Positions 19,264-33,591 of a stretch of 33,593 nucleotides of DNA are shown piece by piece. Positions within the stretch are counted from its first letter, which is position 1, and each line of letters starts with the position of its first letter. A program made the position numbers and the translations under genes. This DNA is from Candidatus Woesearchaeota archaeon (GTDB taxonomy: Archaea; Nanobdellota; Nanobdellia; Pacearchaeales; GW2011-AR1): the NCBI GenBank assembly GCA_964466855.1, contig CAYXOE010000002.1, positions 1 through 33,593 on the forward strand, in the 5' to 3' direction. The notes beneath the pieces were generated by a model. The model was given only the letters and a program-made list of their open reading frames with translations, did no database searches and was not told the origin of the DNA.

Positions 19264-19685
19264 AGCATCCTCTCCAGCAACTCATTTATTTTTTCTTTGT
19301 GATTTCCCAAAACCCCGCGCGCAACTCCAAAATGCTTTTTGCTGTCAATTCCTCCTCGCGGCGGATGCAATCTGAAAAAAGGCTTCAAATTAAATTCCTC
19401 ATACTTTTTTCCTTTTTCAATTTCTTTTGCAGCTTCCTTCGCATTAATCTTTTTAGATTTATCAAGCAAATTTCCGCGTTTTTCAATTAATTTTTCAAAC
19501 ATGTTTTCATTTATTTCTCCATAAGCGACAAAATCCTTTACTTTTTTAATCATGCCTAATTTTTCCTTTGTTGCATGAGGAATTACGACGCAGGAATATT
19601 TTTTCTTTAGCCTCAACCTGCTGAGAGTTTCCTCAATATTTTTTTGAATTCCAACTTCTCCTCGGATTCTGATTATTGCTATCAT
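19260..19685 (-). CDS. rpl30: 50S ribosomal protein uL30
   Basis: 'MIAIIRIRGEVGIQKNIEETLSRLRLKKKYSCVVIP'. Start set at ATG 19685, which makes an ATGA overlap with the uS5 stop. The tracked ORF extends 11 codons further. Confidence 0.93.
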   Translation of the reverse strand: MIAIIRIRGEVGIQKNIEETLSRLRLKKKYSCVVIPHATKEKLGMIKKVKDFVAYGEINENMFEKLIEKRGNLLDKSKKINAKEAAKEIEKGKKYEEFNLKPFFRLHPPRGGIDSKKHFGVARGVLGNHKEKINELLERML

Positions 19686-20488
19686 CTTATGTTTGTTTTC
19701 TCCAATGCATTTATGCATGCTTTAGCTAAGTTAAATGTTGTTTGTTTTTTCCCGAATGTTTTTGTATAGATATCTTTTATACCCGCTAGCTTCAAAACTT
19801 TTTTCAATTCATCAGCTGCAACAAGCCCTGTTCCTTGAGGAGCAGGTATCAAAGTTATCCTGACACTTCCGGACTGTCCCGTCACTTTCATTGGAATTGA
19901 ATGCGGGTCTGCATCTGAACAATCAAAACTCCCGCACCCTCTTCTTATTTTTATCAAAGACAATTTTGCTTTTCTTACTGCCTTGTCTCTTGCAGGAAGG
20001 GTTTCTTTCGCTTTACCTTCACCAACTCCCACATGCCCATTTTCATCGCCAACAATAGCGAATGCTGAAAAGTTGGGGATATTTCCTTCTTTTGTTTTTT
20101 TCTGAGTTTGTCTCCACGCCCGCCTTTTCCCGCCGCCGAACTTTCCTTTTGATTGCCCCACCGAACTCAAATCAACTTTCAAATTTATTAGAGAATCAAC
20201 TATCTTGTCTTCCAAAATTTTCAAATGATTATCAAGAATATAGTCAATGTCTTTTATTTTCCCTTCCTTTACTTCTTTTCCTAATTTTGTTTTCGGATTC
20301 CATGATATATATTCTGTTTTTGTTTCAATAACTTTGGGAATTTTCTGAAGCTCTTTGTCGATTTCTTTTTCCAGTTCTTCTTCTCCGGCATTCACATCAC
20401 TTTCAATTATTTTTTCAGCGGCATCGGCTATCGGAGATTCATAATATTCTTTTTTGATTTCTATTTTTTTGCTTTCTTTTTCAGCCAT
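19682..20488 (-). CDS. rps5: 30S ribosomal protein uS5 with a long acidic N-terminal extension
   Basis: The 'WNPKTKLGKEVKEGKIKDIDYIL' core begins at residue 63. The dsRBD-like and C-terminal uS5 domains follow. Confidence 0.95.
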   Translation of the reverse strand: MAEKESKKIEIKKEYYESPIADAAEKIIESDVNAGEEELEKEIDKELQKIPKVIETKTEYISWNPKTKLGKEVKEGKIKDIDYILDNHLKILEDKIVDSLINLKVDLSSVGQSKGKFGGGKRRAWRQTQKKTKEGNIPNFSAFAIVGDENGHVGVGEGKAKETLPARDKAVRKAKLSLIKIRRGCGSFDCSDADPHSIPMKVTGQSGSVRITLIPAPQGTGLVAADELKKVLKLAGIKDIYTKTFGKKQTTFNLAKACINALEKTNIR

Positions 20489-22306: not shown

Positions 22307-22687
22307 TTAGTAAAAGTAAGAAATCAATATTCCTCCTGTTCCTTTTTCTATTGCCTCTTCATGAGCCATTAATCCCCTATTTGTTGAAATTATTATTGTT
22401 CCAATGTTTCTTGCAGGCAAATATCTTCTTCTGTATTTTTCTATTTGTTCTTTGTTTGCAGTAAATCTTGGTTTTATTGCTCTGCATTCAATAAAATCGC
22501 CGAATACGACCTCAACACTTCTGTTTTTGCTGTCTATTTTGTATCTTTTGATTGCCTCTTTTTGCTTCATGATTTTCAGAATTTCAATTAAAAGATCTGA
22601 AATTCTGTTTATTCTGATGTTTTCGCGTCCTGCTCTCTTTGCATTTCTTATCATATTCAAACTATCTGAAACAATATCTTGTGACAT
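22307..22687 (-). CDS. rps8: 30S ribosomal protein uS8
   Basis: 'MSQDIVSDSLNMIRNAKRAGRENI'. Start set at ATG 22687, giving a TAATG 1-nt overlap with the uS14 stop. The 37 upstream codons of the tracked ORF are read-through of the uS14 coding region in another frame. Confidence 0.93.
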   Translation of the reverse strand: MSQDIVSDSLNMIRNAKRAGRENIRINRISDLLIEILKIMKQKEAIKRYKIDSKNRSVEVVFGDFIECRAIKPRFTANKEQIEKYRRRYLPARNIGTIIISTNRGLMAHEEAIEKGTGGILISYFY

Positions 22688-22917
22688 TATGAGTATTTTT
22701 TGAAACCGATTTCCTCCGCAATTTCTCTGAAACATTGTCTGCATAAATTTAATCCATATGAGCCTATGTGTGCACCAAATCTGCCGCATCTCTCGCATTT
22801 GTTCATCGATATTCCATATTTCCTTTCTTTTGGCTTGTTGTGCCTTATGAACTTGTCTAATTTAACGGGCTTATTCTTAAGCTGCTTTGTTATTTTTTTC
22901 CAATCGCTTGCTGTCAT
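22687..22917 (-). CDS. rps14: 30S ribosomal protein uS14 (zinc-binding type)
   Basis: 'KCERCGRFGAHIGSYGLNLCRQCFREIAEEIGFKKYS' is the CxxC...CxxC uS14 core. A GGAGG sits 8 nt upstream of ATG 22917. The N-terminus is about 20 aa longer than typical. Confidence 0.93.
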   Translation of the reverse strand: MTASDWKKITKQLKNKPVKLDKFIRHNKPKERKYGISMNKCERCGRFGAHIGSYGLNLCRQCFREIAEEIGFKKYS

Positions 22918-22918
22918 T

Positions 22919-23140
22919 TTATTTGCCTCCTAAAAATTCTGTCAAATTTTTTGTATATTTACTAACGTCTTTTCCAAATGAAATAGCAACTTCTCGAGCT
23001 GTTAAATAATCCCTATAAAGAGTCCCTTCTGATACTACTCCCCCTTCTATTAAAACACCACTCGCCATACTTCTGAATGTCTCCATTGCATTTATTGCTT
23101 CTTCCCCATTGCGATAAAATCTATTAACTATCGGCTTCAT
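22919..23140 (-). CDS. Hypothetical 73-aa protein inserted between uL5 and uS14
   Basis: An open frame that exactly fills the uL5-uS14 spacer, with 1-nt gaps on both sides. Near-neutral composition (10 K/R, 9 D/E). I recognise no r-protein motif in it. Confidence 0.6.
   Translation of the reverse strand: MKPIVNRFYRNGEEAINAMETFRSMASGVLIEGGVVSEGTLYRDYLTAREVAISFGKDVSKYTKNLTEFLGGK
22926..22930 (-). promoter_or_regulatory. Shine-Dalgarno GGAGG for uS14
   Basis: cctcc on the plus strand reads GGAGG on the minus strand, 8 nt before ATG 22917. It is embedded in the last codons of the 73-aa ORF. Confidence 0.7.
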
Positions 23141-23141
23141 T

Positions 23142-23645
23142 TTATACGAATCTCGTCTGGAAATTCTCTTCCATGTATTTAATTATTTCTTCTTCGCTAA
23201 CTCTTTGCTTTTTTGGAAGATGACTTTTTTTTATTTTTCTTAGTTGTATCCTTTTTCCGGCCCTTGCAAAAGTTATTGTAACATCGAATCCTGTAATCCC
23301 GATATCTCTCTGATATTCCAGTCCAGGAATTTCAATGTACTCTTTTATTCCGAATGAAAATGTGTTTTCGCTTACTTGTTTTTTTCTTATTTTATTGTCG
23401 ACAGCTGCGAATAATCTTTTCAGCAGCGGTTCGAAATTTCGTCTGATGGTTATTACAGCGCCAACATTTAATTTCGGTCTTACTCCAAGAGTCGGGATTC
23501 TTTTTCGAGTTTTCATTTTTGCAGCTTTTCGTCCTGTAAGTAACTCAATCAGTTTCGCGTTTTTCTCAAGTTTGTCTTCGCTTCCGCCGACACTGATTAC
23601 AACTTTTTCTATTTTTACCTGCCTCATTGAATTTTCTTTTATCAT
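23142..23645 (-). CDS. rpl5: 50S ribosomal protein uL5
   Basis: 'VKIEKVVISVGG...' and 'GITGFDVTITF' match the uL5 core. ATGA overlap with the eS4 stop. Confidence 0.95.
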   Translation of the reverse strand: MIKENSMRQVKIEKVVISVGGSEDKLEKNAKLIELLTGRKAAKMKTRKRIPTLGVRPKLNVGAVITIRRNFEPLLKRLFAAVDNKIRKKQVSENTFSFGIKEYIEIPGLEYQRDIGITGFDVTITFARAGKRIQLRKIKKSHLPKKQRVSEEEIIKYMEENFQTRFV

Positions 23646-33470: not shown

Positions 33471-33591
33471 CGCCCCCGCCAGGAATCGAACCTGGAGGCC
33501 CATAGGGCCCGGTTCTCTTGTTGATTTTTCTCGACAAGTGTTAGGCTTGTCCTAACTCAAGACCGGTGCAATACCATTATGCGACGGAGGC
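33471..33591 (-). tRNA. trnS: tRNA-Ser(UGA) with a 41-nt intron at the canonical 37/38 position
   Basis: Folded by hand:
- acceptor stem GCCTCCG/CGGGGGC with one G-U pair
- T-arm CCAGG-TTCGATT-CCTGG
- anticodon stem CCGGT/ACCGG, loop CUUGAG|A, anticodon at 33557-33559
- 13-nt variable arm (GCCC-TAT-GGGC)
- discriminator G, no encoded CCA, T5 run downstream
- intron about 33515-33555. Confidence 0.85.

Follow-up and report, generated by a model that had tools for sequence, protein, structure and literature searches.

We have identified a 73-codon open reading frame (ORF), here termed ORF73, wedged between the uL5 and uS14 genes of a ribosomal protein operon on contig CAYXOE010000002.1 (assembly GCA_964466855.1, Candidatus Woesearchaeota archaeon), of which a stretch of 33,593 nucleotides (nt), referred to as the window, was analyzed. 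ORF73 is a coding sequence with host-like codon usage, neither an accidental frame nor an RNA element, and as a strict ORFan it occurs in a single species-level lineage. We think it probable, with moderate confidence, that ORF73 is a genuine and very young passenger gene, inserted at the uL5/uS14 junction, that uses the transcription and translational coupling of the operon and is accessory and dispensable or nearly neutral. The clade-wide pattern of small ORFs at ribosomal protein gene junctions, together with a short junction cassette described below, is of more interest than ORF73 alone.

Hardly any gene adjacency is more fixed than uL5-uS14-uS8, and DPANN genomes are regarded as stripped down. 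The window is a low-GC archaeal fragment (32.6% GC) with a minus-strand gene cluster of the S10-spc type, in the order L3-L4-L23-L2-S19-L22-S3-L29-SUI1-S17-L14-L24-S4e-L5-[ORF73]-S14-S8-L6-L32e-L19e-L18-S5-L30-L15-SecY, followed by EMC3-like, prefoldin and SpoIIM-like genes.

Results

ORF73 fills the whole uL5-uS14 spacer on the same strand as its neighbors, leaving a single nucleotide on either side (Table 1). The coordinates, the one-nucleotide spacers, the translation and the balance of 10 K/R against 9 D/E are exactly those reported in a first-pass annotation made from the sequence alone. That annotation had also called the operon otherwise gap-free, which is incorrect, as real gaps of 114 nt and 42 nt separate S19 from L22 and SUI1 from S17. 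Since uL5 and uS14 both align end to end with their orthologues, ORF73 is not a detached piece of either gene.

The probability of a stop codon on the sense strand is 0.081 (1 in 12.3, slightly higher than the 1 in 13 of the first-pass annotation), and that of 73 consecutive open codons is 0.002, within the bound of 1% that had been claimed. Codon usage was scored with a log-odds model trained on the other 45 genes of the window and compared with 72-codon windows. ORF73 scored 0.387 bits per codon, which corresponds to the 64th percentile of such windows from real genes (mean 0.349), whereas random strings of codons, free of stops and matched in base composition, averaged 0.05, and 0.05% of them scored as high as 0.387. 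Across the 112 spurious open frames of at least 60 codons in the window the mean score was -0.02, and the five other frames of ORF73 scored between -0.37 and -1.0. The GC content of ORF73 is 35%, compared with 32.6% for the window. No unusual RNA fold was found at ORF73 (z-score +1.04, with 172 of 200 shuffled sequences folding at least as well) and Rfam gave no match in the region, which rules out a structured regulatory RNA such as a ribosomal protein leader. An internal terminator was also considered and rejected, the T5 tract at 22936 being one of 27 in the operon and uninformative on termination. Given the open-frame probability, the codon score and the lack of an RNA signal, ORF73 is therefore read as a coding sequence, and the first-pass claim of a real coding frame is borne out.

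Both junctions of ORF73 read TAAAATG, the generic stop/start junction in ribosomal protein operons of the clade. The downstream junction is preceded by a GGAGG that is encoded by the last codons of ORF73 and serves as the Shine-Dalgarno (SD) sequence of uS14, as the first-pass annotation had noticed. ORF73 has no SD sequence of its own. This was correctly noted as well, although it is undistinctive, since about half of the operon genes (L5, L6, L18, L30, SUI1, S17 and SecY) likewise have none. The termination-reinitiation coupling to uL5 that had been drawn from the missing SD sequence is plausible from the TAAAATG junction, but is not specifically implied by the absence of an SD sequence. In three close relatives (loci L002, L004 and L005) the penultimate Arg codon of uL5 (within codons 164-166, window 23148-23156) is AGG, and the resulting GAGG in ACGAGGTT is used as the SD sequence of uS14. 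In the window this codon is AGA, so the upstream SD sequence is weakened just ahead of ORF73 and initiation of ORF73 is probably weak; this reading is drawn from a single observation, and the change could have gone in either direction.

The predicted product of ORF73 is an 8.1-kDa protein with an isoelectric point (pI) of 8.0, as opposed to 9.2-11.0 for all 24 neighboring operon products. It contains no His or Cys, and no RNA-binding or zinc motif was noted. A single-sequence AlphaFold (AF2) model (pLDDT 77, pTM 0.67) is mostly alpha-helical, with helices at residues 12-27, 38-54 and 66-69. The protein is predicted to be small, near neutral in charge, mostly helical and soluble, and not to be a ribosome component. 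Its predicted tryptic peptides include NGEEAINAMETFR and EVAISFGK.

Searches for homologues were carried out in protein, profile, structure and viral collections. ORF73 had no Pfam match at E<=1 and no NCBIfam match at E<=10, and its best match among PDB sequences (E=0.75) was unrelated, in agreement with the earlier statement that it belongs to no known ribosomal protein family. The profile search, structure prediction and Foldseek search that had been proposed as checks yielded no family and no fold; for the model, Foldseek against PDB and BFVD returned nothing at E<1. No match was obtained in PHROGs, PADLOC or the viral contigs of IMG/VR. A word-indexed search of 5.8 billion proteins returned a single cluster of three proteins with at least 99% identity, namely ORF73 itself and its A26V and G33E variants. 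An exhaustive phmmer search of 1.84 billion representatives added only two matches, P0004 and P0005, which were rejected as homologues because they are translations of tandem repeats with E-values inflated by repetition. A helix-turn-helix (HTH) protein had been suspected from LTAREVAISFGKDVSKYTKNL and from a weak blastp likeness to inserted ORFs with a winged HTH; this was not upheld, with no Pfam HTH match and an hhalign probability of 0.3% against the winged-HTH inserted family. Origin by duplication or overprinting of a neighbor was likewise rejected, since neither blastn-short nor tblastx gave a match in the window or any of the loci, and the same searches detected no donor or second copy of the 225 nt in the window or the fetched loci.

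Two variant contigs with ORF73, sharing 99.7-99.9% identity with the window, were recovered from runs SRR5161795 and SRR5161805, both of which sample a single site, a copper-mine tailings dam in Brazil. The frame is intact in all three assemblies (the window contig and two Logan assemblies).

The loci of relatives were found by uL5 scans and comprise 80 genome and 80 metagenome loci, all from Pacearchaeota, Woesearchaeota or Nanoarchaeota-type DPANN archaea. In the eight closest loci (L002-L006, L083, L084 and L089; uL5 78-84% identical) the uL5-uS14 gap is 3-7 nt and the S4e-L5-S14-S8 order is otherwise identical; an example of such an empty junction reads ...GTA TAATAAA ATGACAGCA. A tblastn search with ORF73 at E<=10 found nothing in the 160 related loci and matched solely the same-strain contigs L001 and L082. 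The empty site in the eight closest loci and the lack of a tblastn match together identify ORF73 as a lineage insertion, in which about 225 nt entered the uL5/uS14 junction of one species-level lineage. The first-pass annotation had asked whether relatives carry a syntenic ORF at this place; no related one was found, and unrelated ORFs occur at uL5-uS14 instead. As a separate observation, L002 (DATJPO010000005.1) and L039 (DAITPU010000002.1) contain archaeal S4e-L5-S14-S8 operons and are titled 'Candidatus Omnitrophota bacterium' and 'bacterium', respectively, probably through mis-binning or a wrong label.

Small ORFs at ribosomal protein gene junctions were then surveyed across the 160 loci. 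An ORF was counted as inserted when consecutive conserved genes were separated by a gap of at least 150 nt and at least 80% of that gap was filled by a sense-strand ORF of at least 30 codons. By this definition, 124 inserted ORFs of 52-208 amino acids (aa; median 100) are present in 63 of the 160 loci (~40%); examples among the related loci L009-L162 are L064:194-5941, L018:4494-4799, L031:4500-4820 and L055:4485-4736. The most frequently occupied junctions are S17-L14 (23/117 junction pairs), L14-L24 (20/123), S14-S8 (18/149), L19e-L18 (17/122), S8-L6 (15/140) and L5-S14 (9/157), and none were found in the 160 loci at L29-SUI1, SUI1-S17, S19-L22 or L18-S5. Grouping by blastp gave 84 clusters, 60 of them singletons, and ORF73 had no detectable similarity to any. 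The uL5-uS14 junction alone holds eight mutually unrelated ORFs, ORF73 included, and eight of the small-ORF families are spread over two or more kinds of junction. The most heavily colonized locus, L064 (JBAZOZ010000020.1, 194-5941), has eight small ORFs interleaved with ribosomal protein genes from S3 to L6. Two of these ORFs, located at L14-L24 and S4e-L5, are paralogues of each other (59% identical, dN/dS 0.43), which points to duplication from one junction to another.

In inserted families seen in at least two genomes, NG86 dN/dS ranged from 0.14 to 0.9 and was mostly below 0.5, with less saturated pairs at 0.18-0.43; as judged from these ratios, the inserted ORFs are, as a class, real and fast-evolving genes. 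Their median pI is 6.6, most being acidic and 3 of the 124 exceeding 10. Many end in GGAG(G) 8-12 nt ahead of the next gene and keep a TAAAATG-type junction. Flanking repeats of at least 11 nt accompany 10 of the 124, compared with 2.8% in the null. A Pfam match was obtained for about 10 of 88 representatives: MazG (two), HD, NT5C, nucleoside 2-deoxyribosyltransferase, M23 peptidase, DUF5680 and winged HTH. Annotatable ORFs are found at L018:4494-4799, L080:2966-3319, L078:173-721 and 2278-2904, and L015:5892-6302. Apart from the M23 peptidase, most of them encode enzymes of the nucleotide pool, as is typical of auxiliary genes in phages (MazG, HD, the NT5C deoxyribonucleotidase and nucleoside 2-deoxyribosyltransferase). 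One family-less protein of 76 aa, found in L018, L056 and L109, has six homologues among the 5.8 billion proteins and lies at L14|L24 in all four contigs examined, which cover three of the six homologues (L163:3001-3231, L164:878-1108, L165:1456-1686 and L166:1068-1298). Of all the inserted families, this one is the strongest candidate for a genuine lineage-specific protein linked to the ribosome.

A conserved cassette of 52-58 nt was found in 56 copies in 44 loci, every copy lying in sense orientation at a junction, most often S17|L14 (26 copies) and L5|S14 (19 copies); examples are L061:4505-4562, L109:3493-3549, L010:2491-2542 and L011:4505-4606 (two copies). It reads as a mini-ORF of 16-19 codons (MKANxKFSFIRxK...FK) whose TGA overlaps the next ATG, with a GGAG ahead of that ATG. 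Codon-position entropy was 0.61 at third positions, 0.67 at first and 0.81 at second positions. Because third positions are no more variable than the others, conservation of the cassette seems to act on the DNA or RNA and not on a peptide. An nhmmer search with a profile built from it (--max, E<=100, filters off) gave no match at 23090-23140 and nothing significant in the window. A second short junction element, with a consensus of about AAATGAAAAATAAATTTTCCAAAATAAAAAACAGGAGTTTTTCATA, was observed in 13 spacers at several junctions in up to three tandem copies (for example L034:4496-4617, L034:6194-6292, L051:1811-1856 and L092:4218-4268).

Table 1 Features of the ORF73 locus and additional annotations in the window
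Feature	Position	Strand	Remarks
ORF73, 73-codon orphan coding sequence	22919..23140	-	ATG 23140-23138, TAA 22921-22919
Upstream coupling junction TAAAATG	23138..23144	-	uL5 TAA 23144-23142, A 23141, ORF73 ATG 23140-23138
Downstream coupling junction TAAAATG	22915..22921	-	ORF73 TAA 22921-22919, A 22918, uS14 ATG 22917-22915
GGAGG, Shine-Dalgarno of uS14	22926..22930	-	Inside ORF73 codons 71-72, 8 nt ahead of uS14 ATG
uL5 gene, 167 aa, intact, full length	23142..23645	-	Pfam L5 and L5_C; alignment with relatives extends to residue 167
uS14 gene, 76 aa, zinc-ribbon type, intact from residue 1	22687..22917	-	Pfam S14; 70-87% identical to all relatives over residues 1-76
tRNA (Rfam)	33471..33591	-	41.5 bits; 71 model positions over 121 nt
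L22	26629..27252	-	N-terminal extension of ~52 aa before the Pfam domain; acidic, Lys- and His-rich
S5	19682..20488	-	N-terminal extension of ~125 aa before the Pfam domain
L24	24309..24803	-	Longest frame with extension of ~46 aa; overlaps the end of L14 by 104 nt
ORF, 235 aa	30587..31294	-	Directly upstream of L3; no Pfam family
ORF, 214 aa	32783..33427	-	Near the window end; no Pfam family

Among the additional annotations in Table 1, the span of the tRNA match relative to its model implies that it probably contains an intron of about 50 nt; ARAGORN found no tRNA in the window. The true start of L24 is uncertain owing to its overlap with L14.

Discussion

We propose the following course of events for ORF73. 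Once this lineage had separated from relatives with about 80% uL5 identity, about 225 nt were inserted exactly at the uL5/uS14 stop/start junction. Carrying no signals of its own, ORF73 would be transcribed by read-through from the operon promoter, and ribosomes terminating on uL5 would restart 1 nt downstream at TAAAATG and translate it. The GGAGG in its last codons and a stop codon that rebuilds TAAAATG would keep uS14 expressed. As uS14 retains both an SD sequence and a coupling junction, the insertion would be cheap, which is probably why it was tolerated. At the level of the clade, insertions elsewhere, in antisense or with terminators would be lethal, and those that are sense-strand, junction-exact and SD-restoring would survive; a deletion bias of the genome would then trim the survivors to zero spacer. 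Junction-exact sense insertions would accumulate because only such insertions leave the operon working. The pattern across the clade is most simply explained by this selection filter, with ORF73 as one case of a clade-wide process. Most likely ORF73 plays an accessory role that the cell can do without, or is nearly neutral, and our confidence in any particular biochemical role is far below the moderate confidence that we place in a passenger gene. The first-pass suggestion of a passenger, regulatory or selfish, whose expression follows that of the ribosomal proteins fits this evidence.

Several points weigh against a young passenger gene as described here. Even for the closest relatives, uL5 divergence is about 20%, which bounds 'recent' only loosely. 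Five single-nucleotide polymorphisms (SNPs) distinguish the roughly 3.1 kb of the variant contigs, and the two that fall inside ORF73 are both nonsynonymous (A26V and G33E); they are too few for dN/dS and are compatible with weak or no constraint on ORF73. No donor was seen in viral contigs, the window or relatives, so acquisition and origin in situ both stand as possible sources of the sequence. The structural model was built from a single sequence (pLDDT 77) and matches no fold, and any function class read from it is therefore a guess. That other archaeal clades are free of such insertions is taken from the literature (PMC10833476).

A selfish or virus-derived cassette, resembling a moron or a homing gene, could instead have targeted or been repeatedly captured at ribosomal protein gene junctions, and might serve in conflict with viruses or hosts. 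Within the clade, the eight families at more than one kind of junction, the L064 paralogues at two junctions, the phage-like character of the annotatable ORFs and the modest excess of flanking repeats of at least 11 nt all speak for such elements, and the multi-junction families and repeats hint at targeted mobility. Price et al. further argue that ORFans in new operons are probably phage-derived (PMC1480536). Nothing supports targeted mobility for ORF73 itself. A 9-nt direct repeat, ATAAAATGA, flanks it (junctions plus flanking bases), but a repeat of at least 9 nt occurs in 11% of unrelated junction pairs (P = 0.11); the repeat does not exceed chance because TAAAATG is generic in the clade, and a target-site duplication was rejected on this ground. 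ORF73 also has no nuclease, integrase or transposase motif, contains neither His nor Cys, has no PHROG, PADLOC or viral-contig match, lacks a second copy in the window or relatives, and is fully host-like in codon usage. We therefore regard a selfish or viral origin of ORF73 as unlikely.

ORF73 could also be a non-functional frame, that is, an inserted or expanded spacer or a decayed remnant that is open by accident and yields a peptide as a by-product. The lack of homologues and of an SD sequence, the nonsynonymous nature of both strain SNPs, and the abundance of spurious frames of at least 60 codons in AT-rich genomes (112 in this window) would agree with this. It is nevertheless rather improbable, in view of an open-frame probability of 0.002 for a frame that spans exactly from junction to junction and a codon score typical of real genes and far above that of random or spurious frames. 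Purifying selection acts on similar inserted ORFs of the relatives. In addition, non-coding spacers of such length are not the pattern in the relatives, where long gaps are filled by ORFs and short gaps hold the 52-58-nt cassette.

A bolder possibility, to which we likewise give little credence, is that ribosomal protein gene junctions of Pacearchaeota and Woesearchaeota are landing sites for undescribed small cassettes that move via TAAAATG(A) microhomology or the 52-58-nt element, and that some of their products, possibly including ORF73, are strain-specific accessory proteins associated with the ribosome. If so, the ribosomes of closely related DPANN archaea would differ slightly, or these archaea would use different conflict factors linked to translation.

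The first-pass annotation had put forward a lineage-specific ribosomal or translation-associated protein. Such a protein would bind the ribosome or help in its assembly and be made in step with the ribosomal proteins. The tight coupling of ORF73 and its place in the operon's most conserved part, the presence of SUI1 in the same operon, and at least one inserted family (that of L018, L056 and L109) known solely from ribosomal protein operons are in keeping with such a role. There is also precedent, as archaeal S4e, L32e and L19e were once ORFs of unknown identity in the spc operon (work on Methanococcus). The outcome that had been named as refuting it was observed: ORF73 is missing from the eight closest relatives with identical operon order and from the 160 related loci, and it has no homologue beyond near-identical strain copies. 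Its pI of 8.0 falls outside the range of every neighbor, it lacks an RNA-binding or zinc motif as well as any match in Pfam, NCBIfam or PDB, and each of the two strain SNPs changes an amino acid. Taken as a class, the inserted ORFs encode mostly acidic products, with few of the highly basic proteins expected of this role. We accordingly hold a ribosomal function to be highly improbable.

Finally, we give next to no credence to growth of ORF73 in place from a 52-58-nt junction cassette whose mini-ORF was extended by an indel to 73 codons: although the cassette, with a mini-ORF of 17-19 codons, lies at uL5-uS14 in 19 relatives and the first 50 nt of ORF73 share, by eye, AGATTTT, TCGCAAT, GGGGAAG and TAAATG with it, the nhmmer profile finds nothing at ORF73 and did not support this origin, the closest relatives carry no cassette at uL5-uS14, and the mature codon usage speaks against a recent non-coding origin.

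Conclusions

The core ribosomal protein operon is not closed to innovation, and its translationally coupled junctions are permissive entry points that offer expression for free. Ribosomal protein operons could thus serve as a natural catalogue of very young genes, with their age readable from invariant synteny. A caution for annotation also follows, in that a place inside a ribosomal protein operon is not evidence of ribosomal function. In the literature searched, no description was found of widespread colonization of DPANN ribosomal protein operons by small ORFs, although absence there is not proof of novelty.

In E. coli and B. subtilis, new genes join an existing operon far more often at its ends than within it (PMC1480536). 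ORF73 resembles the native-ORFan pairs described by Price, Arkin and Alm in 'The Life-Cycle of Operons' (2006; PMC1480536), in which an ORFan of narrow lineage lies beside native genes, uses a native promoter with close spacing, and has an age equal to that of the adjacency. It shares the features of an ORFan insertion: no homologues beyond very close relatives, the same strand, close spacing, and a site that is empty in relatives. Unlike those pairs, ORF73 is internal, lies in the most conserved stretch of a universal ribosomal protein cluster in a reduced DPANN genome, and belongs to a pattern that recurs in relatives.

The archaeal S10-spc cluster is a conserved core with occasional exceptions, for example Hsp20 in Thor- and Odinarchaeota, which has been described as horizontal transfer (PMC10833476). 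The non-universal genes of the cluster (S4e, L32e, L19e, SUI1, RNase P protein and Hsp20; PMC10833476) are, like ORF73, co-oriented between universal ribosomal protein genes, and SUI1 is present in the window operon. They are known families conserved across phyla or whole clades, whereas ORF73 is family-less and limited to one species-level lineage. Phage morons and free-standing homing-endonuclease genes are also small genes of patchy presence wedged between conserved syntenic genes, and some inserted ORFs of relatives (MazG, NT5C and HD) are moron-like in being typical phage accessory genes. ORF73 differs from these in that no promoter or terminator of its own was seen, and in having no nuclease domain, above-chance target-site duplication, viral homologue or second copy.

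The closest likeness in kind is to the junction-filling ORFs of Pacearchaeota and Woesearchaeota, which share with ORF73 the strand, the exact filling of the gap, the TAAAATG-type junctions, the GGAG(G) tail, the usual lack of a Pfam match and a non-basic product. Several of these ORFs are kept in at least two genomes, with the dN/dS values given above, whereas ORF73 is known from near-identical copies alone. ORF73 is thus a new, family-less instance of a known process, and the scale and precision with which that process operates in this clade look new.

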